A DNA stretch of 41,474 bases from a virus (lineage: Duplodnaviria; Heunggongvirae; Uroviricota; Caudoviricetes), in the IMG/VR virus record IMGVR_UViG_2563366877_000003, positions 1-41,474 of that record, one strand, 5' to 3'. The position numbers and the translations under genes were made by a program. Shown one piece after another: positions 1 through 37,002 of this stretch (position 1 is the first letter of the stretch; each line of letters starts with the position of its first letter). The notes below the pieces were generated by a model. It ran no database searches. It was not told the origin of the DNA and saw only the letters and a list, made by a program, of their open reading frames with translations.

Positions 1-1173
1 TCAGGCCTTATGGTGGAAATAATCACTCAGGCGAGAAAACATGCCGCCTTCCCCGACAGATTCCAGGGTAACCAGCGGCCAGTGCGCCACCTGTTTATCA
101 CGGTCGTAAAGTTCAATTTCCCCTACCCGCTGATAGGCGCTAATTGGCGCGGTGAGTTCTTTACCATCAAGGGTATATTTGGCTTTGATATGTGGAATTT
201 CGGCTTTCGGTAGCACCATCCAGAACTCTTGTTCCGTTCCCAGGTCGATATTTTCTTTATCGCCATACCAGATGCGTTCCGTTCCGACCTTTTTCCCACG
301 GTGCAAAATTTGCACCGTAGTAAAGTTTTGTTGCCCCCAACGCAGTAATTTTCTTGCCTCTTCCTCACGACCTTTTGCACTGTCAGCCCCCATTACCACT
401 GCAATGAGACGACGCTGCCCATCTACAGCCGAAGCAATGAGATTAAACCCGGCACCAGAAGTATGACCCGTTTTCAGGCCGTCAACATTCATGGTTTTAT
501 CCCACAACAACCCGTTACGGTTTTGCTGGGTGATACCGTTCCAGGTGAGACTTTTCTCACTGTACATATGATAAAACTCGGGCTCGCCGTGGATGATAGC
601 GCGAGAAAGCACAGCTAAATCATAAGCCGAGCTATGCTGGCCAGGTGCATCCAGACCATGCACTGTTTCAAAATGCGTATCCTTGAGATGCAACTTCTCG
701 GCATAGTTGTTCATCATTTCAACAAACTGCCGTTGCCCACCGGCAATATAGTCAGCCAGTGCAACACAAGCGTCATTTCCGGAATCAACAATTAAACCAC
801 GGCTTAAATCACGTACCGATACGCGATCGCCCTCTTTCAAAAACATCAGTGAAGAACCGACAAACACCGGATTATCTTTCGCCCACGCATCGCGCCCCAC
901 GGTGACAATATCGTCTGGCGTAATGCGATGACTATCGATAGCGCGATCCACGACATAACCCGTCATCAGCTTTGTCAGGCTGGCGGGATTGCGCTGTTGA
1001 TGCTCATTACCCGCGGTGAGGATCTGTCCGGTGGTGTAATCCATCAGTACCCAGGACCCGGCATGAATCTCTGGAGGCTGAGGTGAAAAATGAATGTTTT
1101 CCGCCGCAAAACCAGACGATAAGTTAAAAACGAACAAAGAAGCAGCAATAATAAGACGGCGTTTCAACAGCAA
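1..1173 (-). CDS. dacD: D-alanyl-D-alanine carboxypeptidase, penicillin-binding protein 6b
   Basis: Full 390-aa ORF with signal-peptide-like N-terminus and the low-MW PBP motifs SxxK (SLTK), SxN (SGND) and KTG (KTGHT). Sequence recalled as E. coli DacD. Confidence 0.9.
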   Translation of the reverse strand: MLLKRRLIIAASLFVFNLSSGFAAENIHFSPQPPEIHAGSWVLMDYTTGQILTAGNEHQQRNPASLTKLMTGYVVDRAIDSHRITPDDIVTVGRDAWAKDNPVFVGSSLMFLKEGDRVSVRDLSRGLIVDSGNDACVALADYIAGGQRQFVEMMNNYAEKLHLKDTHFETVHGLDAPGQHSSAYDLAVLSRAIIHGEPEFYHMYSEKSLTWNGITQQNRNGLLWDKTMNVDGLKTGHTSGAGFNLIASAVDGQRRLIAVVMGADSAKGREEEARKLLRWGQQNFTTVQILHRGKKVGTERIWYGDKENIDLGTEQEFWMVLPKAEIPHIKAKYTLDGKELTAPISAYQRVGEIELYDRDKQVAHWPLVTLESVGEGGMFSRLSDYFHHKA

Positions 1174-1962: not shown

Positions 1963-2325
1963 ATGTTAAAGCTATTTGCAAAGTACACCTCTATTGGTGT
2001 GCTGAACACACTTATACACTGGGTGGTTTTTGGTGTATGTATCTATGCCGCGCATACCAATCAGGCTCTGGCAAATTTCGCAGGTTTCGTTGTGGCTGTG
2101 AGTTTTAGCTTCTTCGCGAATGCAAAATTCACATTCAAGGCATCGACTACAACGATGCGTTACTTGTTATACGTGGGATTCATGGGAACATTGAGTGTTG
2201 TCGTCGGGTGGGCTGCTGATAGATGCGCACTTCCCCCGATGGTCACCCTTATCACTTTCTCCGCCATCAGCCTGGTGTGCGGTTTCGTCTATTCAAAGTT
2301 CATTGTCTTTAGGGATGCGAAATGA
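1963..2325 (+). CDS. gtrA: GtrA, bactoprenol-linked glucose translocase (flippase)
   Basis: 120-aa hydrophobic four-helix protein directly upstream of and overlapping gtrB; typical serotype-conversion operon order. Confidence 0.85.
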
Positions 2326-3254
2326 AGATATCTCTTGTCGTTCCTGTCTTCAATGAAGAGGAAGCGATACCAATTTTTTATAAAACGGTACGTGAATTCG
2401 AAGAGTTGAAGTCATATGAAGTGGAAATTGTTTTCATAAATGACGGAAGCAAAGACGCTACGGAGTCAATCATTAACGCTCTGGCTGTTTCTGATCCGCT
2501 AGTTGTTCCGCTGTCATTTACACGCAACTTTGGTAAAGAACCAGCATTATTTGCAGGGTTAGACCATGCAAACGGGGATGCGATAATCCCAATTGATGTT
2601 GACCTGCAAGACCCGATTGAGGTTATTCCTCATCTTATTGAAAAGTGGAAGGCAGGTGCTGATATGGTACTGGCTAAGCGCTATGACCGTTCTACAGATG
2701 GAAGACTGAAGCGCAAGACTGCAGAATGGTTCTATAAGCTCCACAATAAAATAAGCAACCCAAAGATTGAAGAGAATGTTGGTGATTTCCGGTTAATGAG
2801 CCGTGAGGTTGTCGAAAATATCAAGCTTATGCCAGAGCGCAACCTTTTTATGAAAGGGGTACTGAGTTGGGTAGGAGGCTCGACAGACATCGTCGAATAT
2901 TCCCGCGCAGAACGTGTTGCTGGTAATTCAAAATTCAATGGATGGAAATTGTGGAATCTTGCGCTCGAAGGGATTACAAGCTTCTCAACATTTCCCCTGC
3001 GCATATGGACTTATATCGGGTTAGTGGTAGCTGGCCTAGCATTTCTGTATGGCGCATGGATGATATTTGACACTCTCGCATTTGGAAATGCTGTACGAGG
3101 ATACCCTTCACTGCTGGTGTCCATTCTGTTTCTTGGAGGGATCCAACTAATCGGCATCGGTGTACTTGGAGAGTACATCGGGAGGATTTACATAGAAACC
3201 AAGGCAAGACCTAAATACATCTTAAAGGAGAAAATAAATGACAAGAAGATTTAA
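2322..3254 (+). CDS. gtrB: GtrB, bactoprenol glucosyltransferase (GT2 family)
   Basis: 310 aa, GT2-like N-terminal domain plus two C-terminal TM helices; start overlaps gtrA stop. Confidence 0.9.
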
Positions 3255-5028
3255 ATTACTACTTTTTATCTCGTTTATTATTCTAGTGGCTATGAATTGC
3301 TACATTGGATATGGTTACACCCCGAGTTCTGATCAGGCTTCTGGTGTAATCATTTCACACGACATAGCAAATGGAAACATTCTACTTTCAGGATGGTTTC
3401 TTTCAACCGTAACTTTCTATTTTACAGACCTTATTTGGTATGCATTGCTGGATATAATAGGTATCAGTAATAAAGTTCAATCATATTTAGTTCCGTCAAT
3501 CCTTATTTCTGCTCTGACAATATGCTGCATAATACTTTCATATCACAAAAAGAAGTTGCCATGGGCAATATTCTTCTCATTTGGAATTCTAGGAGCTTAT
3601 TCATCAAATATATTTAACCTTGCCGTATCACATATTGGGGCTTATTTATATACAGCAATTATTTATATTATAATAGAAAGAACAACTGTATACAAAGCTA
3701 ACATACATCATTATCTCATTGTTTTTCTCTTAAGCCTAGCCATATTTTTTAGCGACGACATAAGCAAATACGCATTTTTGATACCTTTAATTTCATCATT
3801 GGCAATTGAATTATTTTACAAACGAAATAAAGTTCACCTGCACTATGCGGCATCTATATTTCTTGCCTTTATTTTATCGAAAACACTCTTATACTACGTG
3901 CAAGAAATTGGCGGATTTCAATTGCCAGGAATAGGTTATCCTAAGTTTGCCACACAAGAAGAATTTATTAATAACTTATATTTCTTATGTGTTGGTTTAT
4001 TACGTCTTTTCGAAGCATATTTTTTTGGAATGGATATTGGGCTACAGTCTTTTTCATCAATAATTAGACTGTGCTTTCTATTGTTCTTTGTTTACATCAT
4101 TGCTTCTAATGCAAGAAAAATAACAAGATTCTCAACCATTGATAGAGCTTTGCTTCTTACGGCGATTATAATGCCGTGCGCATTCTTATTTAGTAATATT
4201 CCATCAGCGGTTGAATCAATAAGATATATTGCTCCATCTGTAATTTTCGGGGCTGTATTCATCTGTAGAAATGTAAATATAAGCCAAAAAACATCTTTAT
4301 TCCTGCTTTCCTTGTCTTTTGTTAGCGGTGCCATAATTTATGGTAACGCCATTTCATTAGATAAAAAAAACCATGAAATTAATGATATTTCAAAATATAT
4401 AAAGGAGCATAATCTTAAAGCAGGTTTTGCTTCATTCTGGTTTGCGTCGTCAGTTTCATTAAATAGTGGTTCAGAGATATCGCCAGTAGTATTTAATAGC
4501 CATGAAGGAAGTGTAAAACCATTTTTATGGTTAGCTAAAATAAATAATTATGAGCAAAACAATTCATTTATTATAGCTGATAGTAAAGAAGACATGGACG
4601 CTGCAATAATGCAATATGGAAGACCTGATGTAATTGATAAAGTCATGTCAAAGTTTATCTTAGTATGGAATGACGGGATAAATATACCATTTACCGGTTT
4701 TCACACGTTAACCAATTCAAAATACTTTGGTTCTCTAGGTTATAGTGATGAATTTCAAGTATGCAAAAAAGACGGTGCTACATTCTTGGTAACAGGACCA
4801 TACAAACCTCTCAAGAAAGGTATGTATAAAATGCATATTGAAAAAAGTGGTAGAGGTGATGTATTAGGTGATATTGTAGCGTTTGGTGGTAAAAAATTAA
4901 TTGCTAAAATCAATAATGTAGTTGACATGGATTTCTACATTGATAAAACCTATCCTGATGTCGAGGTGAGAATATATAACTCAGACACAAGTTCATGTAT
5001 TAGCTCAATTTCAATAGAGATGAAATAA
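3238..5028 (+). CDS. GtrC-type serotype-specific O-antigen glucosyltransferase, polytopic membrane protein
   Basis: 596-aa ORF overlapping gtrB end, many hydrophobic segments, strongly AT-rich compared with flanks; third position of a gtr operon. Confidence 0.6.
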
Positions 5029-5170: not shown

Positions 5171-6961
5171 TCAGTTATCATTAAGGCCTACATTTGCCAT
5201 GGCTGTATAAACTGTCCTTCCAGACCCTGTCTGCCCTACCACTCCGGGTACACCTACGAAAGTGTTGCCAGTTATTACCCATGCAAGGTTATCGTTGGTG
5301 TTAAAGTTTATCCCTCCAGTGCATGTATTCCATCCGCCAGTGACTTTCTGGTTACCGAAGAAATTACCATTCACAGTAACATTACGACAATATTCTGCTT
5401 TTATTGCATAACCGTTGCAACTACTGAATTGGTTATTACCCATTAATAGATTCTGCACGTCATAGAGGTACATGCATTCCTGACCGGCGAAATGGATAAC
5501 ATTGGCGTTAAAGCTAAGTCCCAAAACCTCTGTTGCACGTATTGCTGGAGTCCCTGACACTCTGCCTCCAGAAAACAGGCTGTTTGTGATAGTTCCTACC
5601 GCCACTCTGTTAAGGTCCAAGCAATAACCGTCAATATTGTCAATTACGCTATTAGTTATAAATACCGGTAATCCCCGAGAATCCGCCCCTGAATCTAAAG
5701 GTCGGTGTGTCGTTGACTTTATGCCGTAAGGTCCGTAAAACATCGAAGTGCCTACTAGTCTCAAATCGGCAACATCAGTTATATCTATAGGGGATCTGAC
5801 CATATAGCAGTCGATAAATGCTGGACCCTCGTTAATAGGAAATGCTGGTGATACACTGGCCTCGTTAATTGTGGTCATACTGTCGATTAATACGCAGCCA
5901 TTCCAAGTAACCCAGTGTAAATCTGATGCGTAAATCGGTGCCTTGTAAAAACCGCACTTATCAAATTTAAATAGACTCGCATGTTGCAGTGATATAGCCG
6001 CATTGCTGGGGGTAGAGCTGGAGTCATTACTAAAATGAATGCGCTCGAACACTGTATTTTCAGCCCAAGAAGATGCACTCCCGGTGTTGGCGAAGAACAC
6101 CGTGGCGTCCGCATTTATATTTTTGTTTCGCCAGAATGTTTTAGCGCCACCGCTGCCGATGAAATGCATAGACGGCTTGATGACGCATGGAGGTGTAAAG
6201 TAGTAGCTTCCGTACTGAAACTCTATCGATCGACCTTCATATAACTGTGCGTTAGCCAGGATAGGAGAATGATCTAAACTCTGATCTTCAGATTTGCCAC
6301 CGAACCATTCAATTATAACATGACTACCTGCGCCACTTCGTACCCAATATACAGATGGGGAAGCAGACGAAATAAATACTCCATCATCATCTGTGTAATT
6401 CCCTGATACAGCTACGAAAACACCACCACCTAACAAACCACGTCCTGTGGTGTGCTCCTTCACCATGGCCTTATCACCTACAGATGGTGCTACATCCCGT
6501 AAATTTGATATTTCGGCATATTCACCTATGAGATTCAGCCCATCTTCACTACCCAGGTTATCATAACTAACGGCACCATTAACTAAGTTTACGCCGCCCT
6601 GTGAAGACAAATCCTGTCGTAACTGATCAGGGTCATACTTCAGCACATTAGGAAAATAGAACTGCTGCGCACCGTACGTATCATAAACAGCCATCGAATG
6701 ACCTTGCACAGTTACGAACTTGGCAATCTGTCCGTTATATACAGGGTAACCAGCAGAGTTAATAATGATTGGTTGCGAAACAGGAATGTGAGAGCCGTCT
6801 TCGTTCTCTACATAAACCTGAATCTGGTTTTCAGGATTTACAGGGTCAGTGTCAATTTTACCGATATAAATCTTTCCATTAGCTACGGCTTTAAAAGAAC
6901 GAGCCATAGTGAAGAGTTGCGAAGGCATGCTGACCACAACATTTGCGGTGATATCTGACAT
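5171..6961 (-). CDS. Tailspike protein, P22 gp9-type N-terminal head-binding domain with divergent receptor-binding domain
   Basis: N-terminus [10 protein letters not shown]...[12 protein letters not shown]...DTDPVNP...VTVQGHSMA...NVLKYDPDQ matches P22 tailspike head-binding domain; remainder differs. Start set at internal ATG 6961 rather than the ORF-track start 7009. Confidence 0.85.
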
Positions 6962-7082
6962 TTCATTGCTCCAGACGAATGATATGATGCAACCATGATG
7001 TGATTGCATACCGAAATGGTACTATTGAGTATTTATCCAGTAGGTTACGATGCCATTCCACCCAACTGGTGAGGCATCAAGG

Positions 7083-7343
7083 ATGTACAGCAAATACGAC
7101 GAGGCGCAGTTTCACTTGAGACTTCCGCATGAACTCCACGCGAAAATTAAGCAGCGTGCGAAGATGAATAACAGGTCGCTGAACTCAGAGATAATTGCAG
7201 CGATTGAGGAATCATTGGATAAACAAAGCTCTGCATCAGTTTACATTGACGATGCAGAGCGTATGGCAGAACAACAATCTGATATGGTTAAGAAAATTGT
7301 CTTTGATACGCTCAAGAAGCTATATAAAAAAGACAGCAGATAA
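7083..7343 (+). CDS. mnt: Mnt-like ribbon-helix-helix repressor
   Basis: C-terminal half (RSLNSEI...DAERMAEQQSDMVKKIVFDTLKKLYKK) matches P22 Mnt; start set at internal ATG 7083 with AAGG upstream. Confidence 0.7.
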   Translation: MYSKYDEAQFHLRLPHELHAKIKQRAKMNNRSLNSEIIAAIEESLDKQSSASVYIDDAERMAEQQSDMVKKIVFDTLKKLYKKDSR

Positions 7344-7432
7344 CCATCCGTTACGGAGGATTTATGCACAGAGATATGCTGAATATTGCGTTCTACATAT
7401 TTGGTTTTTGCACGTTCCTGGTGTTTGCAAAG

Positions 7433-9430
7433 CTATTCTGACAACGCATCAGACTTAGCCCCCTGCGTCAGGGCGTTAATTGCCTTTTTTGCCTGCTGCA
7501 AGGCTTTCTCAAACGCTGTTGATCCGCGTTGGGTGTTTGCCATTCGGAGCATTGCATTTCTGAATGGCTCGCTCTCATAGGCGCGAGTAAGAAGTCCGTA
7601 GCTTACCGCTGCGCCAGTTGTCGCCGGGTTCATTGCCGTCCCATACCCGATAATGAACGGGATAGTTTGCTGCCCTGTAGGTGTTGTTACTGCCGCTTTT
7701 GCAGCCTGCTGCGTGGATTGCAGGTAGTTTTTTAATCCTTTCAGGTAAGCAGCGTCCTGCCCCTTAAATGTGATGCCAGTCTGGTTTTGCAGGATGTTAA
7801 GCTGCCGAAGGAACTGGTCAGGGGATCCGCCAGATTTCTCCATCGCCTTTCCAATGATGCCATTGCGCATTTGCGCCCTGCCAACACGACCAACTGAGTT
7901 ATACAGCGTCTTAATTTCAGATTTGTTCTTGCTGAATAGCATGTTGTTGACAACTTCCGGCGTCAGGTCGCCTTTCATGAGAACATTCTTCAGCCTGGTA
8001 TTCTTTAGTTTCGCCGCTTCGTCAGCGTAGACGGCATTGGCCTGCTGATATTTACGGAGAGTATCATTGCCAAGATTCTGACCAATGGCACCATTTATAT
8101 CGTCGGTCATCGCCTTGTAAACGCGCTGTATGGCGGCATCAGAACGGTTTGGTAACACTGGTCGCTCACCCTTCACGTCCATTCTGAACTGGCTGCGCAG
8201 ATCGCTTAATTGCTTCAAATCCAGATTTACCGGGCCATCAGGACCAGCATTGCGAACAAGCTCATCACGATATGACTGAAGTTTTGAAATCGTCTCGTTA
8301 TCAGCAACCTTACCAAGCTTCTGCAGGTTAGATATCTCAGTATCAATCTGCTGAATTGCGCGTGCAGGCTGAATGTTTACTCCTGCCATAGCATTCTGAA
8401 CCTGCTCCAGTCGATTACCGGCGGCACGACGAATTCCTGATGTTTTCGCTTTGAGGCTGTCAATAACAACCGCTGGATCATACTCACCGAATTTATCGGC
8501 AAATCTCTGCACCAACTGGCTTCTCGCTTCCTGTTGCGTTGCTCTCATTCCGCTTGTGCCAGCCAGAGGGATATTTTCCGCTGTCGTCTGCGCCATTTTC
8601 CCGACGCGGGAAGTCGGTTGTAACAGGTCTGTGGTGTGCAGAGGCACGCCTTCACGCTCTGCAAACCTGATAGCCTGTTGCGCTTCGGGTGCGATAGCAC
8701 CACGAACGCCACGATAAGCAGCACCTAATCCACGTCCGGCAGCGTTAATAGCACCGCCAGTAAGTACACCAACGCCTAAATCGGTGGCGAGTGCTTCCGC
8801 ATCATCTTTCGCACTATTTGCAGCAAGTGACCCGACTGCGTTTTCAGCGAGAAGGCGAGTTGCACCCTGAGCGATTCTACCAGCGAGTGTTGGTGCCTGT
8901 GTTGCCGCTCTCTCAATGCCAGCAGGAGTGAGGTAAGGCAATGCCTCAGCAAATACCCTGCCCTCTGTAGTTTGTGGAGTCAGCGCGCCTTGCTGAAGGC
9001 CAAAGTCCCGCTCTAATCCCTGCGTTGTTACTCGTGGCGCTGGTTGATATGTCCCATCGCCAATGCCGAGTTTACCGCCAGCCCAAGCCGCCGCGCTTGT
9101 TACAGCATCGGCAACTGATGCAGGTATGTTTGCCACGTTCACGCCAGCCTGCACCAGTCCGCGACCAGTCTCTTTTACTGCTTCACCAAGATCAGACATA
9201 AATCCGCTTTGCTGTGGTTGTTGCTGTGCTACTGGTTGCTGTGTCTCCACTGGCTGCACAGATGGCAATGGATAGGCTGCATAGAAAGCTTGCTTAGCCT
9301 GCTCTGCATTTTCTCCGGCTTGCGGGGCCACGACTTCATTGAAGTATTGCTCCTGAGCCTGCGCTTTTTGTTCTGGTGCTAACGCCTGATACTGTGGAGA
9401 GGCGATAACATCTTTCCATGCTTTAGCCAT
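7433..9430 (-). CDS. Ejection (injection) protein, P22 gp16-like
   Basis: 665 aa, last gene of the 7-20-16 ejection-protein order downstream of gp20. Confidence 0.75.
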   Translation of the reverse strand: MAKAWKDVIASPQYQALAPEQKAQAQEQYFNEVVAPQAGENAEQAKQAFYAAYPLPSVQPVETQQPVAQQQPQQSGFMSDLGEAVKETGRGLVQAGVNVANIPASVADAVTSAAAWAGGKLGIGDGTYQPAPRVTTQGLERDFGLQQGALTPQTTEGRVFAEALPYLTPAGIERAATQAPTLAGRIAQGATRLLAENAVGSLAANSAKDDAEALATDLGVGVLTGGAINAAGRGLGAAYRGVRGAIAPEAQQAIRFAEREGVPLHTTDLLQPTSRVGKMAQTTAENIPLAGTSGMRATQQEARSQLVQRFADKFGEYDPAVVIDSLKAKTSGIRRAAGNRLEQVQNAMAGVNIQPARAIQQIDTEISNLQKLGKVADNETISKLQSYRDELVRNAGPDGPVNLDLKQLSDLRSQFRMDVKGERPVLPNRSDAAIQRVYKAMTDDINGAIGQNLGNDTLRKYQQANAVYADEAAKLKNTRLKNVLMKGDLTPEVVNNMLFSKNKSEIKTLYNSVGRVGRAQMRNGIIGKAMEKSGGSPDQFLRQLNILQNQTGITFKGQDAAYLKGLKNYLQSTQQAAKAAVTTPTGQQTIPFIIGYGTAMNPATTGAAVSYGLLTRAYESEPFRNAMLRMANTQRGSTAFEKALQQAKKAINALTQGAKSDALSE

Positions 9431-27912: not shown

Positions 27913-28520
27913 GCGGCCTCACTTCTGCTATTTCGCAGGTCTTTGAGTTTCTGTTGGTACTCTGCCTTGATCGCCTTGCACTCTTCGACAGTCCAGCGAT
28001 GGCGGTTATGGTTTGATTCGATTTCGTCTACTGCTTCCTGCCCGATACGGCTAATCAGTTCGACGCGATACGGAACGAGATTTCCGCTTTTGTGCTGGTT
28101 GCACACCACGCATTGCTTGTGAATATTGCGTTCATCAAATCGGAGTTGAGGTGCCGCAGCAGTTGTCCGGTAATGTCCGGCATCCCACTGAGCAGACGTG
28201 ATCGTTCCGCATGAGATACATGGTAAGTCGCGGTCTCTTTCTCTGATGAAGGCGTTTACGGCTTGTTGGGCTTGTTTAATCCAGTAACTGCGGGGCTTTA
28301 AGGCGAGTTTTCGAATCTTAAGTTTATCTTTCTGTTTCTGCTCCTCTCGTCGTCGTTTCTTCTCTGCTGCTTTTTCCGCTTTTTCGCGTTCTTTGCTTCG
28401 TCGTTCGAGTGCTATCTTTGTTCCACACTCTGGAGAGCACCACCACTGATTAGCGAATGCAGGGTGAAACCATTCCCGACATTCATCGTTTTTACATCGT
28501 CTTCGCGCTGGTTTAGCCAT
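27909..28520 (-). CDS. ninG: NinG (Rap-like recombination endonuclease)
   Basis: 203 aa, Cys-rich N-terminus; matches lambda NinG. Confidence 0.9.
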
Positions 28521-28689
28521 CGTCTTCTTCCTCGTACATTGAGCTATTCGGATCGCTCATCAGTTCTGCGCAGCAGTGCTCACACACGTGAACTTCCAGC
28601 ACATGCAGCTTCTGACCGCAGTTAGCGCACGTTAAAGCCCGCTCGACGCTTTCTTTCTGGTATTGAAGAGATTGGGATGGACTAAGCAT
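28513..28689 (-). CDS. ninF: NinF
   Basis: Internal start [40 protein letters not shown] matches lambda NinF (58 aa). Confidence 0.7.
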
Positions 28690-29089
28690 GGCTTTCACCA
28701 TTAAAAAGTCGCTTGTAAGCATCAATGTCTCGTTTTGCTTCACCAAGCTTTCGTCTTAATTCCATGTTTTCTGATTCAAGCTTTTCCATGTCTTGCTGGT
28801 ATCGATCGCGGTGTTCTTTCCATGCTTTTCGATACGCCTTCATGTATGTCGTATTGGCCTTTCTCTTTGCCTGACGAACTGCATGGTGGTTATTCACAAA
28901 CCAGTCAGGGTCGTTAAATGCTGCTCTGGCGCATGTATACCAATAATTTGTTGCCTCCCTGTTTAGCCAATAAATACTGATAAATGGCAACTGTATCGAC
29001 ACCATTTTTCGTTGAGACTCTTTCTCGCCAAACATGTGCCCTTTTTTGATGCTAAGGCCAAATCCAGGTTGAATTAAAAGCATTGTCAT
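28682..29089 (-). CDS. Hypothetical protein between ninE and ninF (NinX position)
   Basis: ORF with ATGA overlap to the ninE stop at 29086..29089; charged coiled-coil C-terminus; not present in lambda. Confidence 0.45.
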
Positions 29090-29262
29090 TTCCTCGCACG
29101 ATTTCTTAGCCACCGGATATCCCACAGGTGAGCCGTGTAATTGAAGGTTTTTACGTCAGATTCTTTTGGAATTGGCTTGCGTTTATTTCTGGAGCGTTTC
29201 GTTGGAAGGTATTTGCAGTTTTCGCAGATTATGTCGGTGATACTTCGTCGCTGTCGCCTCAT
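29086..29262 (-). CDS. ninE: NinE
   Basis: Internal start [53 protein letters not shown] matches lambda NinE. Confidence 0.7.
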
Positions 29263-29786
29263 GCCGCTCTCCTGACGCCCTGCCCGATCGCCATCAATGC
29301 CGCTTTGGATACGGTAGTAAACATCCGTCGAGGACTGATGAACGGTCGCCAAATCAGCAGCATGGAGCCTTTGCTGTTTCCCTTCTTCTCCAACCCTGTC
29401 GATGGTTCGATAAAATTAATCCGTCCATCAGTGATAATGCGAACTTCGTCGACACTCTCCAGAGCCTTGCTGAACCATCCGACTGACATATCCTCTGGCA
29501 CAAGCATAACTACCGTCTGTCGCTGTTGTATGCACTGCTCAGCGGCTTTTTCCACCCACGGCCTGATATTGCTGTACGGTGGGTTATTCCAGATTGCACC
29601 GTGGCTTACCCACTCAGAATTGAGCGCGTCGTCGGCCTCAGTTAGCCAGTGAGCACACAGAGCATTTTTGTCGCTCGCTGCCGAATCCAGCCAGAATCCA
29701 AACTCAATATCCAGTGCATCAAAAAGCCAAAGCGGCGTTTGCCAGCAGTCCTTGTCGTGTGCTGGCGTATTTGATTTGATAGTCAT
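29259..29786 (-). CDS. DNA N6-adenine methyltransferase (phage Dam family)
   Basis: Catalytic NPPY motif (IWNNPPYSN); start at [25 protein letters not shown] with ATGA overlap to the upstream ORF. Confidence 0.8.
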
Positions 29787-30385
29787 GCAGCCCGATCTCC
29801 CCATCTCGCTTTCATTTTTTCATTTGCAAATCGCCAGAATCTTCCTTTGTGATATGAGCTTTCGCCATTACAGCAACGACTAATTGACGAACTATCAAAT
29901 CCTTCTCTGACAGCATCCATAGCTGCTTCATAATAAACCTCCTCCCCAGTTTTCATGTCAGTAGAAATAACAGCTTTACTGGCAGGATGGTCACCACTAA
30001 ATTTACCTAGCGATATAGGTATTCTTCCATTTTGTTTATATCCGTGTTTTGAGTTTTCAGAATGTGATACCCATTCAAGGTTATCAGCCCTATTGTCATC
30101 TCTTCGCCCATTTTTGTGATTAACTACCAAGCCATCACAGAACCCTGTACAGAATGCTTTCGCAACTATCCTGTGGGCGCTGTATTTCTTACCGTATACC
30201 TTTATTTGAAGATATCCTGTCGACTTGCACTTGAATGGTTTTACACTAGTGCCATTAATTATTTTCTTATATGGCCTCTGTCTGGTTGATGTTACTGTAA
30301 CTTCCCTCGTAATAGACCTAAAATTTCCTTTATTGCTAACCTGATAAAATGGAATCCCTTCGATATCTACCCAAACCTCAATCAT
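29783..30385 (-). CDS. HNH homing endonuclease (NUMOD4 N-terminus, HNH core)
   Basis: N-terminus EVWVDIEGIPFYQVSNKGNFRS (NUMOD4-like); HNH core VVNHKNGRRDDNRADNLEWVSHSEN; C-terminal HKGRFWRF motif. Last residues KARWGDRAA equal the recalled lambda NinB C-terminus. Confidence 0.8.
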   Translation of the reverse strand: MIEVWVDIEGIPFYQVSNKGNFRSITREVTVTSTRQRPYKKIINGTSVKPFKCKSTGYLQIKVYGKKYSAHRIVAKAFCTGFCDGLVVNHKNGRRDDNRADNLEWVSHSENSKHGYKQNGRIPISLGKFSGDHPASKAVISTDMKTGEEVYYEAAMDAVREGFDSSSISRCCNGESSYHKGRFWRFANEKMKARWGDRAA

Positions 30386-30794
30386 AATTCCTCCATTCGC
30401 TAAGATGAATTGAGTTCATGGCACAATATGCTTCTATGTAGTCCATTATTTCGGATATTTTTTTTACAGATAGAGTCGCCGTACTCTCTCTGATGTTTAT
30501 TAGCTCACCTTCTAACCCTGATATAATCTCAGGGTGCTGATTGGTTGCAATCTGCCAACCAGAAACGAATAACCCCTTCCAAAACTCAATATTTCTTGCT
30601 TTTCCATGATATGTAGCCTTCTTACTTATTTCAGATAGCATCGCGTGAAGGCGTGCATTTTGCCGAATGCTGCGGTTGCGTTCCTGAATGGTTACTACGA
30701 TTGGTTTGGTTGGGTCTGGAAGAATTTGCTGTACCGCGTGAATAGCGTTTTGCTGATGTGCTGGAGATCGAATTTCAAAGGTTAGTTTTTTCAT
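30378..30794 (-). CDS. ninB: NinB (Orf-family recombination mediator), mosaic allele
   Basis: From internal start MKKLTFEIRSPAHQQNAIHAVQQILPDPTKPIVVTIQERNRS (lambda NinB N-terminus); C-terminal two-thirds diverge. Confidence 0.85.
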   Translation of the reverse strand: MKKLTFEIRSPAHQQNAIHAVQQILPDPTKPIVVTIQERNRSIRQNARLHAMLSEISKKATYHGKARNIEFWKGLFVSGWQIATNQHPEIISGLEGELINIRESTATLSVKKISEIMDYIEAYCAMNSIHLSEWRNYD

Positions 30795-30867
30795 GACTTC
30801 CCTCTCCCCCAAATAAAAAGGCCTGCGATTACCAGCAGGCCTGTTATTAGCTCAGTGATGTAGATGG

Positions 30868-32244
30868 TCATACGTCAGCCCCTTGTGCATATCGTCTGCC
30901 ACGTGCAGCGGGTGCATTTGATGTTGTGCAAATCTGTCTGGCTTCATCCTGGTCACATGCAACAAAGTGTCCGTTGCAGAACCGCTGGTAAACCGTACCA
31001 AGCGAGCCAAAACGGTTTTTCGTCACAATGATTTCAGCAAATGGCGCGGCGCTACTGTTCTCGTCATATACCGCTTCCCGATAGAGCATGATGATTGAGT
31101 CTGCATCCTGTTCAATGCTTCCTGAATCACGCAAATCTGCGTTTGTCGGGCGTTTGTTTGGTCGCTTCTCAACATCGCGCGAAAGCTGACTCAGGGAGAT
31201 AACAGGCGTTTTCAGGTCTTTCGCCATCGCCTTCAGGCTTCCGGAGATGTGAGCAATTGCAAGGTCGTTGCGGTCTGCTTTCGGCTTCTCAATCAGGCCA
31301 AGATAATCCGCCATGATGAGTGACAGGTTTGGATTTTCCTGTTTGTGCCGTTCTGCGATTGAGCGTATTTCTTCGACCGATAACCGCGAGGCATCGACTA
31401 CCCATACATCCAAATCTGCAAGCTGACTCATGCCGTTAGCAACACGTGCCCAGCCCTCGTCATCCATCGATGCAGGATTTCGCAGTACGCTAACCGACAT
31501 CCTCCCGGCGTTGGCAATGCTTCGCTCTGCAATCTGCAATGCGCTCATTTCCATTGAGAAAATCAATACCCCGCGCCGGACGTCAGAACCAGGAATAACG
31601 CGGCTTGCAACGCCTTCGGCAATCTTCAGCGCCAGTTCGGTTTTCCCCATACCAGGACGAGCAGCGATTATCACAAGGTCTTCCGCGTTCATCCCTCCGG
31701 TGATGGCGTCAAGTTCTTCGATTCCGGTCTTCAGGGTATCTGACTCTTCTCCGTTCCTCAGACGCCTGTCAAGCGTGTCAGTGTAGTCAGTGATGATTTC
31801 CCCTAACCGTACCGGTTTAACCTCGTCACGGGGCTTTCTGATGGCTGAGAGACGCTTTACAAGTTCATCCATCGCCTGACTCGATGCGTCGATGGTTCCG
31901 CTCTGAATTGGTTCACGCATTTCATCCATGATTTCCAGCACCAGACGGCGGTGATAGTTATCCGCGACCATTCCGGCATATCCCTTCAGGTTTGCGGCAC
32001 TCGGGCAGTTTTTGCTGGTCATCAGGATTGACGTGAAATGCTCCTCTCCGCACGCCTCGGCAACCATCAGCGCATCGATTAGGTTTCTGTTTCTCGCCTG
32101 CTTGCGGATAACCTCGAAGGCTTTCCGGTAGAGCGGAATTGAAAACGCTTCCGGCTCCAGCGTTGCCAGAACGTCGCTGGCGGTTGGCGTTAATCCACCA
32201 ATCAGCAGGCCACCGATAACGCTCGCTTCGATATCCTGTCTCAT
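30868..32244 (-). CDS. Replicative DNA helicase (DnaB family, P22 gp12-like)
   Basis: 458 aa, Walker [10 protein letters not shown], DnaB C-terminal domain; overlaps the initiator gene. Confidence 0.9.
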
Positions 32245-33062
32245 GCAATCCCCCTGTCTGCAAACTTCCCTTCCCGAACTCCCGTTAACGAGTCTTCCCT
32301 CAGCAGGTAATCAAAATCAGCCGTCCAGCCCGTGTCGTTGTCTCCGAAGTAAAACGGCTTGGCCTGATGCACAAACGCCCTGACATACGCTCTGAAACCG
32401 TCCACATTTGGCGTTTTCAGTTGCGGGATGATTTTCTTCAGGCGGCGTTTGCGTTTCTCGTTGACCGAAACAGCGTGTGGCAGTCTGTCACCGACTTCGG
32501 TGTTGTAGGCGTTCAGGAAGGATTCGTAGTCGATTCGTTCTGCCTTGCGACGTTCAGGTTTAACCTGCCCATCGCCACCCCCGTTAGGGGGTAAGGGGGT
32601 ATTTGTATTTATTGTCTTTTGTATATTGTCTTTTGTGTTTAGCTGACTTGGCTTATACCCATTAGCCGACTTGGCTAATGTTTTATTAGCTGTTTTAGCT
32701 AATGTTAAGCTGTCCTGGCTAATCCACTGAGAAACCACCTTGTTCACTCCGATTTTCACGCCATCAGCAATGAGGAATTTACGCTCAATAAGCTGGCGCT
32801 TGGCAGCGCAAACATGAGTGTGATGAATACCTGTCATGGCTGCTATCTGCGTGTTTGTGAGTCGATCCATCGGCTTATTGAATCCGTATGTCTTGCGCAT
32901 GATAGCGAGCATCACCTTCATCTGCCGGACGGTTAAATCAGCCATCAGCAGACTGTCGGTAATCTCGTTAGCAACGCGCATGAAACCATCTTCGGTATCT
33001 GCCACGCGATGCTCCACGACCTCCAGTTGAGGCCTGTAATCAGCTAACTTAACGACGCCCAT
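32241..33062 (-). CDS. Replication initiator, lambda O / P22 gp18-like
   Basis: 273 aa; N-terminal region resembles lambda O; gene contains iterons. Confidence 0.85.
32601..32720. repeat. Replication origin: AT-rich tract plus four 13-bp iterons inside the initiator gene
   Basis: Iterons AGCTGACTTGGCT (32641), AGCCGACTTGGCT (32664), AGCTGTTTTAGCT (32688), AGCTGTCCTGGCT (32708) at 20-24 bp spacing, next to ATTGTCTTTTGT x2. Confidence 0.7.
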
Positions 33063-33210
33063 GTTTCACTCCTGCTTTGGCTAGTCTGTAAACACCAACA
33101 AGGCGCTCTGCGAACGCCCTGTTATTTGCTGCGGCTACCACTAATCCCTCAGGTGAATCAGGGTGTCGAATCTCTTCTTTTTCCTGGTATTTCTTACGAC
33201 GTTTTGTCAT
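33049..33210 (-). CDS. Small basic hypothetical ORF between cII-like and initiator genes
   Basis: 53 codons (MTKRRKKYQEKEEIRH...), AGGAG 5 nt upstream of ATG 33210, end overlaps initiator start. Below the ORF-track size cutoff. Confidence 0.3.
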   Translation of the reverse strand: MTKRRKKYQEKEEIRHPDSPEGLVVAAANNRAFAERLVGVYRLAKAGVKHGRR

Positions 33211-33244
33211 AATGACTCCTGTGGATTGATCCAGTCTTTCTACA

Positions 33245-33526
33245 TCAGGCCTCGAAGAATTCGCCGTTCTTCGGGGCTTTTTCTTTTGTCAGGTAATTGG
33301 CAAGCCGCTTAGTCAGCTCAGCCATTTCATCGTCTTCGATTCCGTATTCCAGAACAGCCAGCATCATGCTTACCTGCGAGAAGAAACCATTCTTCCATCG
33401 GCTTACCTGATATTCAGGAATCCCCATTGCTCGAGCGAATGTCTTCTGCCCCATCAGTGCCAGTTTGTTCAGCAAGGCTGACTCGATGCGAGCCGCTTTC
33501 TTGCTTTTAGTTGCAATAGTACCCAT
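33245..33526 (-). CDS. cII: CII-like transcriptional activator
   Basis: 93 aa; ARIESALLNKLALMG...YQVSRWKNGF...MMLAVLEYGIEDDEMAEL aligns with lambda CII. Confidence 0.75.
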   Translation of the reverse strand: MGTIATKSKKAARIESALLNKLALMGQKTFARAMGIPEYQVSRWKNGFFSQVSMMLAVLEYGIEDDEMAELTKRLANYLTKEKAPKNGEFFEA

Positions 33527-33642
33527 AGATAATTTCCTTAATGATTAGATAGAGTTGGCTTCGCAAAGAAACGCAAAACCATAGAGATTTGTTTCTGGTA
33601 ATGCCCTTTTTCAGGGCGGGGATGTGTAAGAGCGTTAATAAC

Positions 33643-33873
33643 TTAAGCGGCCATTAATTCAGGCCAGATGCTTTCCCAATCAACCGGATGAAGGTCTTTG
33701 CGAGTCACTTCACCATTGCTGAACTTCTCAATCAGAACACAAAGTGCTGCGCCCAATTCATGATTACGGCTAAGTGCTTTCCTCAAATAGCCGATAGAAG
33801 TTCCGCACTTGGTGGCAAATTCTCTCTGCTCTTCCAGTGAAAGGGAGTTCAGATACAAGCGGAGTTCTTCCAT
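33643..33873 (-). CDS. cro: Cro-like HTH regulator
   Basis: 76-aa ORF divergent from cI across the operator region, HTH-like segment FATKCGTSIGYLRKALS; assignment mainly positional. Confidence 0.55.
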   Translation of the reverse strand: MEELRLYLNSLSLEEQREFATKCGTSIGYLRKALSRNHELGAALCVLIEKFSNGEVTRKDLHPVDWESIWPELMAA

Positions 33874-33907
33874 TTGCTATCTCCTTCCCGTTGTTGAATA
33901 AGATGAG

Positions 33908-33963
33908 TTTACCTGTAGGTAAAAAGCAAATCAATACCCATAGGTTATTTACCGGCAGGTAAT
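33908..33963. promoter_or_regulatory. Right operator region (OR) between divergent cro and cI
   Basis: Palindromes TTTACCTGTAGGTAAA (33908..33923) and TTTACCGGCAGGTAAT (33948..33963), with a weaker site between. Confidence 0.6.
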
Positions 33964-33981
33964 CAAAGATAGAATTAAATC

Positions 33982-34668
33982 ATGGATAAATACGAACAAA
34001 GACGACTAAGGCTGATAGAGATAAGAGACCGATTCTGTAATGGAAAGGCCTCAGAGTTGGCTCGTCGAATAGAAAGGGAACCATCATACGTTTCCAGAAT
34101 GCTGTATCCGGAAGGAAAAAGCGGAAAAAAACGCATTGCTGACGATATGATGGAACTAATTGAAAAATCTTTTAATCTCCCACGCGGATGGATGGACATG
34201 CTTGCAGATGGTAAAGCTGGAGCTACAGACCATCTTGAGTTTGCGGGTAACGTTCGTGCGGGTTTTGTTCCGGTAATTGGTGAAGCCGTTTTGGGAGTTG
34301 ATGGCTCAGTGGATATGATTGAATTCAGATCCGGTTGGTTAAGCATCTACAGCGGCGATAAAGATGCTTACGGTCTGAAGGTTAAGGGTGACAGCATGTG
34401 GCCAAGGATTCAGTCAGGAGAATATGTTGTTATTGAACCAAATACGCCAGTACATCCAGGTGATGAAGTCTTTGTAAGGACCAAAGACGGTCACAACATG
34501 ATAAAGATCATGAACAAAACAAGAGACGGTGATTATCAGTTTAGTAGCATAAACAGTGATCACCGCCCAATCACTCTTCCTGTTGAAGAAGTTGATAAAA
34601 TGCATTTTGTTTCAGCTATTGTGAAACACACCAGGTACGTAGACCAGGACGATCTGCCAAAAGTTTGA
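33982..34668 (+). CDS. cI: CI-type prophage repressor (HTH plus S24 LexA-like autopeptidase domain)
   Basis: 228 aa; C-terminal S24 domain with GDSMWP serine and downstream lysine; N-terminal HTH; divergent from cro. Confidence 0.9.
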   Translation: MDKYEQRRLRLIEIRDRFCNGKASELARRIEREPSYVSRMLYPEGKSGKKRIADDMMELIEKSFNLPRGWMDMLADGKAGATDHLEFAGNVRAGFVPVIGEAVLGVDGSVDMIEFRSGWLSIYSGDKDAYGLKVKGDSMWPRIQSGEYVVIEPNTPVHPGDEVFVRTKDGHNMIKIMNKTRDGDYQFSSINSDHRPITLPVEEVDKMHFVSAIVKHTRYVDQDDLPKV

Positions 34669-34979
34669 GGATAAAGCAGCAAGTGTTTATACCCGGCATA
34701 GTAGTCGCTGTTGTAATCATCTGCTTCATATGGGCAAAGTTATCTCCTGTAAGCTCTAAGCATACAGCTGAACTCATGAAGAAGAAGCATCTTATACATG
34801 AGGCAGAATCGATAATTAAAAAGTTCAAAGGCATGTCATACGACGACATGTCATCAGAGCAGATTGCTATGTATAAATGCGCCATTGAGCGTCTTGACTA
34901 CTTAAACGGACTCAAACCCAAACACACCCCAGTAGAATCAAAATTGCCGCAATGGCCAAGCAATCCAAATAGCTTCTGA
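34665..34979 (+). CDS. Small single-pass membrane protein apparently co-transcribed with cI (rex/sie position)
   Basis: 104-codon ORF beginning with TTG overlapping the cI stop (TTGA), or GTG at 34683; hydrophobic segment FIPGIVVAVVIICFIWA then charged domain; followed by a terminator. Confidence 0.4.
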   Translation: MRIKQQVFIPGIVVAVVIICFIWAKLSPVSSKHTAELMKKKHLIHEAESIIKKFKGMSYDDMSSEQIAMYKCAIERLDYLNGLKPKHTPVESKLPQWPSNPNSF

Positions 34980-34990
34980 CATCTCCTTTC

Positions 34991-35013
34991 AGCCCGCAAA
35001 GCGGGCTTTTTTA
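34991..35013 (+). terminator. Intrinsic terminator ending the cI transcript
   Basis: AGCCCGC-AAA-GCGGGCT followed by TTTTTTAT. Confidence 0.65.
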
Positions 35014-35032
35014 TATCAATCCAAAAAATTAA

Positions 35033-35115
35033 TTACCTGAAAATTCAAGCAGGTAAACTCTTACATCAATTTTATTTACCTACAGGTATAGACAGCTGTT
35101 TTACCTGTAGGTATA
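35033..35115. promoter_or_regulatory. Left operator region (OL)
   Basis: TTTACCTACAGGTATA (35075..35090) and TTTACCTGTAGGTATA (35100..35115), plus TTACCTG-N10-CAGGTAA (35033..35056); same half-site as OR. Confidence 0.6.
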
Positions 35116-35125
35116 TTTTAGGCCA
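35089..35125 (+). promoter_or_regulatory. Early leftward promoter pL
   Basis: TAGACA (35089..35094), 17-bp spacer, TATATT (35112..35117); sequence from about 35125 (ATCAGCAGGACGCACTGACC) matches the lambda pL transcript start. Confidence 0.6.
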
Positions 35126-35157
35126 TCAGCAGGACGCACTGACCACCATGAAGGTGA

Positions 35158-35188
35158 TGCTCTTAAAAATTAAGCCCTGAAGAAGGGC
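35158..35188 (+). promoter_or_regulatory. nutL site (boxA and boxB)
   Basis: boxA TGCTCTTAA (35158..35166) and boxB hairpin GCCCTGAAGAAGGGC (35174..35188), as in lambda nutL. Confidence 0.8.
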
Positions 35189-35345
35189 AGCATTCAAAGC
35201 AGAAGGCTTTGGTGTGTGTGATACGAAACGAAGCATTGGCCGGAAGTGCGAATCCGGATTAGCTGTCAATGTGCCATTGCTGGGTGTTTTCGTTCAGGAC
35301 TACGACTCCCACACACAACCAAAGCTAACTGACAGGAGAATCCAG

Positions 35346-35672
35346 ATGGATGCACAAACACGCCGCCGCGAACGTCGCGCAGAGAAACAGGCTCAATGGA
35401 AAGCAGCAAATCCCCTGTTGGTTGGGGTAAGCGCAAAACCAGTTAACCGCCCTATTCTCTCGCTGAATCGCAAACCGAAATCACGAGTAGAAAGCGCACT
35501 GAATCCGATAGACCTTACAGTGCTGGCTGAATACCACGAACAGATTGAAAGCAACCTGCAACGTATTGAGCGCAAGAATCAGCGCACATGGTACAGCAAG
35601 CCACGCAGTGAAATGGGTGTGACTTGTGTTGGTCGCCAGAAAATGAAATTAGGCAGCAAGCCACTTATTTGA
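35346..35672 (+). CDS. N: Antiterminator N
   Basis: From internal ATG 35346: MDAQTRRRERRAEKQAQWKAANPLLVGVSAKPVNRPILSLNRKPKSRVESALNPIDLTVLAEYH..., matches lambda N; the ORF-track start is a GTG extension. Confidence 0.9.
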   Translation: MDAQTRRRERRAEKQAQWKAANPLLVGVSAKPVNRPILSLNRKPKSRVESALNPIDLTVLAEYHEQIESNLQRIERKNQRTWYSKPRSEMGVTCVGRQKMKLGSKPLI

Positions 35673-35683
35673 GAGGAATTAAT

Positions 35684-36307
35684 ATGTCATCAATCCGCTT
35701 AACTACGAGAATGAAAGAGGAAATCGCTCGTAACGCTTTAATTAAGTCTGGGGTTTTCACTGAACTTGAAGAAGTAACAAAGTTAAAGAACCAGCTTGCA
35801 CTTGACGCCAGAGTTATTGCGTTTGGCGGTAAAAAGAAAACTGAGGAAGTGGATCAGTTATCATCTAAGTTTGTAGCTATAAGTGAAGAACTTGAAAAGA
35901 TGGGATGTTCATTTTACTCATACGATTTTCGTTCTACTTCAATTTATCTGACTGTATCTGGCAGAAGGGTTGGATGGCATTCATATGGGAAAGACGGCAA
36001 CGGCGAAGATATATTTCTCCCTACTCCAACCAAAGATAAATGCATGTTTGACGCAGAACACGAAATAACAAAAAGGTTTGATGAAATCTGCGCATTGCAA
36101 CAAAAACTTGAAGCCAAGAAAAAGGATATCGAATCAAATGTATGGGCTGCTTTAAACTCAGTCACAACAGTTAAGCGACTCATTGAAGTTTGGCCTGAAA
36201 GCAAAGAATTGCTACCAAAAGAAGCAGATAAAGCAAGTACAGCACTTCCTGCTTTACGGGTAGAGGATTTGAATAAGATGATTGGACTTCCTTCCGAGGC
36301 CGCATAG
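35684..36307 (+). CDS. Hypothetical early-left protein immediately downstream of N
   Basis: 207 aa from ATG 35684 with GAGAGGA upstream; soluble, Lys/Glu-rich; no recognised motif. Confidence 0.5.
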   Translation: MSSIRLTTRMKEEIARNALIKSGVFTELEEVTKLKNQLALDARVIAFGGKKKTEEVDQLSSKFVAISEELEKMGCSFYSYDFRSTSIYLTVSGRRVGWHSYGKDGNGEDIFLPTPTKDKCMFDAEHEITKRFDEICALQQKLEAKKKDIESNVWAALNSVTTVKRLIEVWPESKELLPKEADKASTALPALRVEDLNKMIGLPSEAA

Positions 36308-36323
36308 TCGGCCTTTATTTTTG
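36297..36323 (+). terminator. Intrinsic terminator (tL1-like)
   Basis: AGGCCG-CATAGT-CGGCCT followed by TTATTTTTGG. Confidence 0.6.
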
Positions 36324-36441
36324 GCATAAACAACAGAATAAACACAGCACTGTGTATTCATTCCAACGAGTGAATACACGGAGCAATGTCGCTCGTAACT
36401 AAACAGGAGCCGACTTGTTCTGATTATTGGAAATCTTCTTT

Positions 36442-36468
36442 GCCCTCCGATGTGAGGGCAATTTTTTT
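36442..36468 (+). terminator. Intrinsic terminator
   Basis: GCCCTC-CGATGT-GAGGGC followed by AATTTTTTT, just before the next gene's GGAGG and ATG. Confidence 0.6.
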
Positions 36469-36480
36469 GACGGAGGATAT

Positions 36481-36792
36481 ATGAAATTACGTGTCTGGCA
36501 TATCCCGCAAGTACCTATGAAGCCGTTCATTGTAGAAGTGGCAAGTGTTGAAGAGGGTGTTCGCCTGATGGACGCACTGGCTGATTATGATGCCTTTCAG
36601 TATGACAACAACATCAAGCCTGACTACTGCAATGCTAACGGCCTTGAGATGTGGGATGAGAGCCTTACTGATGAAGATTTATCAGAGATGGGGCTTACGG
36701 ATCGCTGGGTAGATTGGTACAGCGAATGCCAATGTTACGACGACCCACGTAAATATCTCGAAAGCCTGAAAGAAGAAACATCAGCCGCCTAA
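36481..36792 (+). CDS. Small acidic hypothetical protein
   Basis: 103 aa from ATG 36481 (MKLRVWHIPQVPMKPF...), GGAGG upstream; rich in Asp/Glu. Confidence 0.5.
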   Translation: MKLRVWHIPQVPMKPFIVEVASVEEGVRLMDALADYDAFQYDNNIKPDYCNANGLEMWDESLTDEDLSEMGLTDRWVDWYSECQCYDDPRKYLESLKEETSAA

Positions 36793-36867
36793 GCGCGGCT
36801 TTACCGCATACCAATAACGCTTCACTCGAGGCGTTTTCGTTATGCAATCAAATATAAGGAGTTACCC

Positions 36868-37002
36868 ATGATGCACTTTCAGCTCGCGGGTAGCGGCGTC
36901 ATGTCCGCTTTCTACCCGCACGAATCTGAATTATCACGCCGAGTTAAACAATTAATCAGAGCAGCAAAGAAACAACTGGAGGCGTTATGCGCAATGAAAT
37001 AG
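36868..37002 (+). CDS. cIII: CIII-like small protein (FtsH inhibitor family)
   Basis: 44 codons MMHFQLAGSGVMSAFYPHESELSRRVKQLIRAAKKQL..., AAGGAG 6 nt upstream; resembles lambda CIII (MQYAIAGWPVAGCPSESLLERITRKLRDGW). Below ORF-track cutoff. Confidence 0.5.
   Translation: MMHFQLAGSGVMSAFYPHESELSRRVKQLIRAAKKQLEALCAMK

Follow-up and report, generated by a model that had tools for sequence, protein, structure and literature searches.

In phage P22, the immI region lies between gene 16 and the tailspike gene (gene 9) and holds mnt, arc, ant and sar together with the Arc operator (Oarc) and the ant terminator; according to the P22 immI literature, P22 Mnt acts in trans on superinfecting genomes. 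Reduced, mnt-only versions of this "ant moron" are known for the Salmonella phages ST64T, ST104 and L (Villafane et al. 2008, PMC2629481; Zaworski et al. 2020, PMC8022706). The ant moron of P22 has been reported to influence the tailspike level (PMC2629481), and the mnt gene of phage L has been raised as a possible non-functional remnant (PMC8022706).

We analyzed a locus of the mnt-only kind in a P22-like (Lederbergvirus) prophage of E. coli. The window, i.e., the whole stretch of DNA that was analyzed, is IMG/VR record IMGVR_UViG_2563366877_000003 (41,474 nucleotides), and the region under study (6962..7432) consists of an intergenic region of 121 bp (6962..7082), mnt (7083..7343) and a small ORF (7364..7441) that we call orf25 (Table 1). 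In the reading that we favor, with slightly more belief than doubt, the locus is an autoregulated mini-operon (operator, Pmnt, mnt and orf25) that is expressed in the prophage and was left after the loss of arc and ant.

The mnt gene and its neighbors

By all the sequence tests that we applied, the mnt product is a Mnt-family repressor. Repressor_Mnt (Pfam PF11423) matches its C-terminal helix (E=8.7e-15, profile positions 3-28 of 28), the Arc ribbon-helix-helix (RHH) family (Pfam PF03869) matches residues 18-60 of the 97-aa ORF (E=1e-14), and in the PDB both 1MNT (E=7.6e-19, residues 6-78) and 1QEY, the Mnt tetramerization domain (E=4.4e-8), are found. The identity to P22 Mnt is 49%. The in-frame ATG at 7050, upstream of 7083, is an unlikely start of mnt because it is placed within the promoter region. 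Current labels for this protein include "Arc family DNA-binding protein" (protein collection) and "partition protein ATPase" (Sf101), and in IME10 the gene is unannotated.

We note that this Mnt is a mosaic: its N-terminal DNA-binding half is shared with the proteins of VSe13 and JEP4, whose C-terminal halves are unrelated to it, and its C-terminal helix is shared with P22 Mnt (in a comparison that included VSe13, JEP4, ST64T and P0119). The two domains appear to reassort independently.

The mnt gene is divergent from the tailspike gene across the 121 bp and convergent with the gene 16 homolog, as the first-pass annotation had read the gene order. The tailspike matches the Pfam families Head_binding (E=1.8e-66) and Beta_helix (E=1.8e-8), and the 3' end of the gene 16 homolog is 91-93% identical in DNA to that of gene 13 of Sf6 (annotated as "similar to P22 gene 16"). 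The layout is that of the ST64T type, in which mnt is likewise found between gene 16 and the tailspike gene without arc, ant or sar, and is divergent from the tailspike over about 120-135 bp; the window differs from it in a different and shorter tailspike leader, and in ST64T alone, mnt and gene 16 are separated by an additional lipoprotein gene on the late strand. On the far side of the tailspike gene, a 596-aa multi-pass membrane protein with no Pfam match (3238..5028, + strand) follows gtrA/gtrB-like ORFs (1963..3254) and is presumably a serotype-specific GtrC-type O-antigen modifier.

Table 1. Features of the mnt locus (positions are those of the window; an empty strand cell marks a feature without orientation)
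Feature	Position	Strand	Details
Tailspike gene (P22 gene 9 homolog)	5171..6961	-	P22-type head-binding N-terminus; different beta-helix receptor domain
Tailspike Shine-Dalgarno	6969..6972	-	GGAG; read from sequence
23-bp palindrome	6987..7009		ATGCAACCA-N5-TGATTGCAT; inverted-repeat search; in the tailspike leader
Putative Mnt operator	7007..7023		CATACCGAAATGGTACT; 17-mer in register with P22 Omnt
Pmnt-homologous promoter	7025..7051	+	-35 TTGAGT (7025..7030), -10 TACGAT (7046..7051)
Weak leftward promoter candidate	7028..7056	-	ATGGCA (7056..7051), 17 nt, AATACT (7033..7028)
mnt	7083..7343	+	86 aa; Shine-Dalgarno GAGG (7071..7074)
mnt protein architecture			N-terminal ribbon-helix-helix with beta-strand AQFHLRL, C-terminal Mnt tetramerization helix; Pfam, PDB
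orf25	7364..7441	+	25-aa hydrophobic ORF MHRDMLNIAFYIFGFCTFLVFAKLF; Shine-Dalgarno GGAGG (7355..7359)
Terminator-like hairpin followed by U-run	7455..7492	+	In the gene 16 3' end; scan match 7470..7486
Gene 16 homolog (DNA ejection protein)	7433..9430	-	Convergent with mnt

Absence of arc, ant and sar

The claim that Mnt stands here alone, without arc or ant, holds in every search. With tblastn, P22 Arc and Ant had no match in the 41.5-kb window, and neither had P22 orf59a and SieA, the Rha, KilA and Arc-like proteins of JEP4 or the antirepressor of VSe13; among all queries, Mnt alone matched. PHROGs and Pfam scans were run on ORFs taken from the lysis, nin, replication, immunity and early-left regions; these represent the usual lambdoid set (Q, NinG, NinB, DnaB-like, O-like, CII, Cro, CI-like, N, Erf, SSB and Abc2), and none carries an antirepressor, Bro-N, KilA-N, Rha, ANT or P22_AR domain. 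No sar RNA or any other Rfam match was found in 6400..8000 at a permissive E-value, and the sole small ORF in the intergenic region (6963..7061, - strand, 32 aa) is without RHH similarity. The re-analysis thus turned up no overlooked small arc or ant ORF in the window, and a hidden arc or ant was rejected on the negative tblastn, PHROGs, Pfam and Rfam results. Compared with P22 immI, the window keeps the Mnt fold, the tetramerization domain and the genomic slot, and is without arc, ant, sar, Oarc and the ant terminator.

Distribution of the mnt-only layout

The mnt-only layout is common and already published, and the window is a further instance of it. The 800 bp around mnt are 97% identical to IME10 and Sf101, the identity extending over the tailspike start, the intergenic region and mnt, with Mnt proteins that are 96.5-100% identical; Sf101 differs in having a longer, different gene 16 homolog and no orf25. 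In Gally, VSe13 and JEP4, a Mnt homolog is directly divergent from the tailspike gene with no arc or ant between them, and ST64T has exactly the same layout. Sf6 is collinear with the window on both sides yet is without about 6996..7328, so that mnt and its control region form a cassette that is present in some phages and absent from others.

Matches to at least part of the region were found in 448 of 5,426 complete E. coli genomes, at least 157 of which cover 80% or more of it in a single place. Six of these genomes were inspected, and all six show the order tailspike, mnt, and then either gene 16 or a different gene, with arc and ant absent. The order tailspike, mnt, small ORF and gene 16 was found in 71 of the 80 close IMG/VR loci; the same arrangement was recorded in 78 of the 78 close loci (of 80) with the left flank present, and matches to Arc, Ant, Rha or KilA in 0 of the 80. 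The exact Mnt protein occurs on 655 contigs of a large protein collection. A profile search of genome contigs with the family alignment gave, after roughly the first dozen loci, mostly RHH proteins of a generic kind, and only full-length Mnt-like proteins were used from it.

The comparison with related prophages that the first-pass annotation had called for therefore shows the mnt-only layout in the relatives too (ST64T, Sf101, IME10, Gally and VSe13). Its description of the gene as an orphan, in the sense of something unusual, does not stand, as the arrangement is widespread and published (PMC2629481, PMC8022706), and the two alternatives that it offered, regulation of the tailspike or a deletion remnant, are essentially the published wording.

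Selection on mnt and a probable origin by deletion

The 86-aa type is represented by 83 alleles with 55 different DNA sequences, and all 83 are uninterrupted. Pairwise, pS averages 0.090 and pN 0.013, with a pN/pS of 0.146 for the whole gene; by domain, the ratio is 0.038 for the RHH part, 0.22 for the C-terminal helix and 0.71 for the linker. Of the 62 segregating sites, 37 are at third codon positions. As measured from these alleles, mnt is under strong purifying selection and is not decaying. A degraded P22-like prophage of E. coli EC26 (28193..37936) contains many pseudogenes and an intact mnt; its mnt region, at another chromosomal site, has 100% DNA identity to that of the window.

That the locus might be a non-functional leftover of a degraded immI, caught between two essential virion genes, is in our view very improbable. 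What speaks for it is that arc, ant and sar are gone, that the junctions point to deletion, that the HK620 annotation lists mnt and ant remnants at this place, and that the same possibility was raised for phage L (PMC8022706); the 83 intact alleles of 83, the low pN/pS (lowest in the DNA-binding domain) and the intact copy in the heavily degraded EC26 prophage argue against an inert remnant, as does the operator core, which is kept across genera (see below). The sole decayed copy that we saw is in a Citrobacter sp. (L111, about 3930..4250), where a frameshift interrupts mnt past codon 4 and the operator core, too, carries a mutation (GGTAC to AGTAC, in ATAGTAC).

Junctions in relatives suggest that arc, ant and sar were lost through deletion or recombination. 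In E62, LR-50, JEP4 and the Gally type, the operator is joined to the leader of 45-50 nt that precedes gene 9 in P22. In one IMG/VR contig (L276, about 414..801), a P22-type ant reduced to its 3' half (residues 191-300, 93% identity) is fused to an operator of the same type as in the window, and the junction bears the motif GTAGCCACGCTGCGGCGAT, which is present twice upstream of P22 gene 9. Read from its sequence, this contig is a deletion scar that ties the mnt-only layout to an ant-bearing ancestor. The deletion remnant of the first-pass annotation is thus supported as regards origin, by the junctions of E62, LR-50, the Gally type and L276, and not as regards decay, given 83 intact alleles of 83 and a pN/pS of 0.146. 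JEP4 (3355..3395) keeps the first bases and the leader of a P22-type tailspike gene beside mnt (ATCTGTCAT TTAATTTGCTCCAGATACAAGG), and its functional tailspike, with another N-terminus, is found 200 bp further on.

A putative Mnt operator

The interval between tailspike and mnt (6962..7082), where a search for an Mnt operator palindrome had been suggested, does hold a candidate, namely an operator-like element at 7007..7023 that adjoins the mnt promoter and has 4 of 8 symmetric pairs (TACC...GGTA), as compared with 8 of 8 in P22, ST64T and Gally. Its core consists of TACC (7009..7012) and GGTAC (7018..7022), 5 bp apart, so that the element can be written as (A/G)TACC-N5-GGTAC (7008..7022). The P22 RefSeq record, which annotates the mnt operator, Pant, Pmnt and the Arc operator, served as the alignment reference. 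In the alignment, CATACCGAAATGGTACT lies exactly beneath the P22 operator AGGTCCACCGTGGACCT and the Gally palindrome AGACCACTGTGGTCT, and each of the three is then followed by ATTGAG, the -35 region of Pmnt. The register of the operator relative to this hexamer is therefore the same as in P22 immI, and its sequence is different; in the ST64T type, too, the operator abuts Pmnt, and there it is the perfect palindrome AAGACCACGGTGGTCTT.

The core is kept in 38 distinct upstream sequences from 104 loci, in a table that was anchored by a regular expression on the core, such that its invariance is partly by construction. The loci come from E. coli, Escherichia sp., Citrobacter, Serratia, Buttiauxella, Rahnella and metagenomes, and all encode the AQFHLRL N-terminal domain. 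The central 5 bp vary (GAAAT, GAAAC, TAAAT, TAAAC, AAAAT, GTTAA or GAGAC), and the left flank is unrelated between loci. In an independent check by eye, the distance between the element and mnt was the same in every QFHLRL-type locus examined. We regard the operator-like element as a clear phylogenetic footprint, as judged from these aligned upstream sequences, and Mnt would be the protein that binds it.

The operator type tracks the type of the beta-strand: HFNFRM (P22) is found with GGTCCAC, QFNLRL (Gally, ST64T, Providencia and Symbiopectobacterium) with AGACCAC or near variants, and QFHLRL (the window type) with TACC. The base-contacting residues of P22 Mnt are reportedly Arg2, His6, Asn8 and Arg10, a finding attributed to Knight and Sauer in 1989. 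According to the 1MNT alignment, they correspond to Tyr5, Gln9, His11 and Arg13 of the window Mnt, and with contact positions altered in this way a changed specificity is expected.

The 23-bp palindrome in the tailspike leader was considered as an Mnt operator and rejected. It is specific to this tailspike-leader variant; it is perfect in IME10-type alleles and imperfect in most alleles; it is absent from diverged QFHLRL loci, and its left arm is also present in Sf6, which has no mnt. Because it is missing in the diverged loci and half present in Sf6, it was not taken as the operator, and it is probably not the Mnt operator. An extended -10-like sequence, TGATATGAT (6979..6987), points rightward and precedes this palindrome.

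A second copy of the operator that could be a target in trans was also looked for. The window contains one exact copy, and the single one-mismatch match, in a coding region at 16589, is at chance level; no second copy was found in JEP4, A3 or VSe13. These results bear on another explanation of the conservation, in which Mnt provides immunity in trans by repressing the antirepressor promoter of incoming phages with the same operator, protecting the prophage from induction. We consider this improbable. It would be in keeping with the trans action of P22 Mnt and with strong purifying selection on a repressor whose own promoter is the sole local target, and the ant remnant fused to this operator type in L276 indicates that ant-linked versions once existed. 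However, no intact arc-ant is found beside TACC-N5-GGTAC in the 119 operator-bearing IMG/VR loci, the 80 close loci, about 20 diverged loci or the phage collection. JEP4, A3 (E. coli) and L106 do have a separate antirepressor module beside an additional QFHLRL-type mnt, which adjoins the tailspike gene in all three, but these modules are governed by their own, other repressors, and in JEP4 and A3 there is no second operator for Mnt.

Promoters and expression of the tailspike

The Pmnt-homologous promoter was placed on the basis of positional homology with the annotated Pmnt of P22 (TTGAGA-17-TATCAT). Its spacer is 15 nt in the window as compared with 17 nt in the E62, JEP4 and Rahnella-type alleles, and a standard consensus scan called no rightward promoter at this place. 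Regarding the opposite direction, the standard scan found no leftward promoter in 6800..7600. A custom hexamer scan, for which P22 Pant (TTGACA-17-TATATT, 11 of 12 consensus positions) and Pmnt (10 of 12) were the positive controls, gave ATGGCA-17-AATACT as the best leftward candidate; it sits at the place of P22 Pant, agrees with the consensus at 8 of 12 positions and is below the standard threshold. The homologous -10 hexamer in the mnt-only types is TAAATA, CAAATC, TGCATC or TATATC, as compared with TATATT in P22, and the final T is missing throughout. As far as can be read from these hexamers, the strong Pant of P22 is not conserved here, and its hexamers are decayed in the ST64T type as well. 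No terminator on the - strand was predicted between gene 16 and the tailspike start. With Pant decayed, no leftward promoter called and no - strand terminator, the tailspike would most simply be expressed through read-through of the late operon.

These observations bear on the proposal, already made in the first-pass annotation, that Mnt regulates the tailspike. In its present form, the operator would overlap a residual Pant-like promoter that drives the tailspike gene, which Mnt would silence in the lysogen and tune during lytic growth. We hold this to be rather doubtful, and it is the likeliest of the three rival explanations, being ahead of immunity in trans, with the inert remnant last. 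The operator is 46 bp upstream of the tailspike start, the 8-of-12 candidate is where Pant sits in P22, and the effect of the P22 ant moron on the tailspike level (PMC2629481) would fit. A tailspike gene also adjoins a Mnt of this type in 98 of the 119 operator-bearing IMG/VR loci, even where the tailspike has another N-terminus (L106 and JEP4); this adjacency is, however, explained by a fixed insertion site of the moron. The Pant hexamers are decayed in every mnt-only type and the standard scan is without a leftward promoter, and the mnt-operator module is also found away from the tailspike, with siphovirus-like tail genes on both sides in L104, and separated from it by an inserted HNH gene in L096-L098. 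What is left of the proposal is the weak leftward candidate at the place of Pant, set against an unconserved Pant and a negative standard scan, so that control of a tailspike promoter by Mnt is weakly supported.

The inserted gene is HNH/AP2 homing-endonuclease-like and is found between the tailspike gene and the mnt operator in L096, L097 and L098 (3341..3850), Rahnella and metagenome relatives.

orf25 and the genes that follow mnt

Downstream of mnt, we identified orf25, which the first-pass annotation did not describe. It starts 20 nt past the mnt stop, has GGAGG 4 nt upstream and runs 9 nt into the end of gene 16. An intact copy is present in 54 loci, and orf25 is also found in Sf6, IME10, Gally and VSe13, with diverged versions in ST64T (where a small MxRDxLN hydrophobic ORF is likewise at the gene 16 end) and in Escherichia sp. 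E1V33; in relatives it always sits across from the 3' end of gene 16, on the other strand. It has no match in a collection of 15 billion proteins and is called by no annotation pipeline. Between the window and Sf6, orf25 differs by few substitutions, too few to prove protein coding. We consider orf25 a candidate second gene of the mnt transcript, with which it would be co-transcribed.

The terminator-like hairpin in the 3' end of gene 16 is followed by UUGCCUUUUUU; its folding energy is unexceptional (z = -0.28), and it is a weak candidate for the end of the mnt-orf25 transcript.

In diverged relatives, a gene on the same strand often follows mnt directly. Called genes of at least 100 aa, which start -4 to +42 nt from the mnt stop, are found in eight loci (L096, L097, L098, L101, L102, L104, L105 and L109), and same-strand ORFs in three more (L113, L114 and L116). 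Among these, genes for Rap1a-family proteins (type VI secretion immunity-like) overlap or abut the mnt stop in several P22-like prophages (L097, L098 and L102) and in a distant locus from Tatumella (L116). L101 has a ClpP-like protein, L096, L109 and L114 have ORFs of the signal-peptide or lipoprotein kind, and the products in L104, L105 and L113 are of no known function. In L104, the whole operator-mnt-cargo unit is embedded in a cluster of tail genes that is not of the P22 kind. In about half of the diverged architectures, the gene after mnt is convergent instead (Gally, epsilon34, ST64T, JEP4 and L099).

Discussion

For the autoregulated mini-operon that we favor, the following order of events may be proposed. 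Mnt, probably as a tetramer, would bind the single 17-bp element at 7007..7023 through the half-sites TACC and GGTAC. This element is placed with respect to the mnt promoter as Omnt is in P22, as far as the alignment tells, and Mnt bound to it would control its own expression from a short rightward transcript that the lysogen would make. The transcript would carry mnt and probably orf25 and would end inside the 3' end of gene 16. The tailspike would be expressed mainly by late-operon read-through from gene 16, and Mnt would at most shut off a weak residual leftward promoter.

Compared with P22 immI, this arrangement does not conserve the strong leftward promoter (the best candidate of the window agrees at 8 of 12 positions as compared with 11 of 12 for P22 Pant), and compared with the ST64T type, it has QFHLRL instead of QFNLRL in the beta-strand and TACC-N5-GGTAC instead of a perfect palindrome as operator. 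With phage morons it shares the orientation opposite to the late operon, an apparent promoter of its own, a terminator-like end, presence or absence between otherwise collinear phages, and cargo after mnt that varies among relatives; it differs from them in that the cassette is led by its own RHH repressor with an operator, and in that the cargo in the window is only a candidate ORF of 25 aa.

A wider proposal, which we put forward as possible and hold more loosely than the mini-operon itself, is that the QFHLRL class of Mnt, instead of being an orphaned regulator of an antirepressor, is the autoregulating lead gene of a mobile, lysogen-expressed cassette made of the operator, Pmnt, mnt and a variable, envelope-directed cargo, the cargo in the window being a conserved and so far unannotated 25-aa membrane peptide at the boundary with gene 16. 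If this is true, the orf25 peptide could be a small superinfection-exclusion or toxin-like factor.

The value of these results is mostly in curation, with some modest biology. A common E. coli/Shigella prophage gene can now be named as a Mnt repressor of a distinct DNA-specificity class with the predicted operator (A/G)TACC-N5-GGTAC, and the three natural pairs of beta-strand and operator (P22; ST64T/Gally; the window) are a small data set on DNA recognition by RHH proteins. Selection keeps Mnt in the absence of ant, and a small cargo operon often has mnt as its first gene; this suggests that Mnt may have a role in prophage gene expression beyond the control of an antirepressor.
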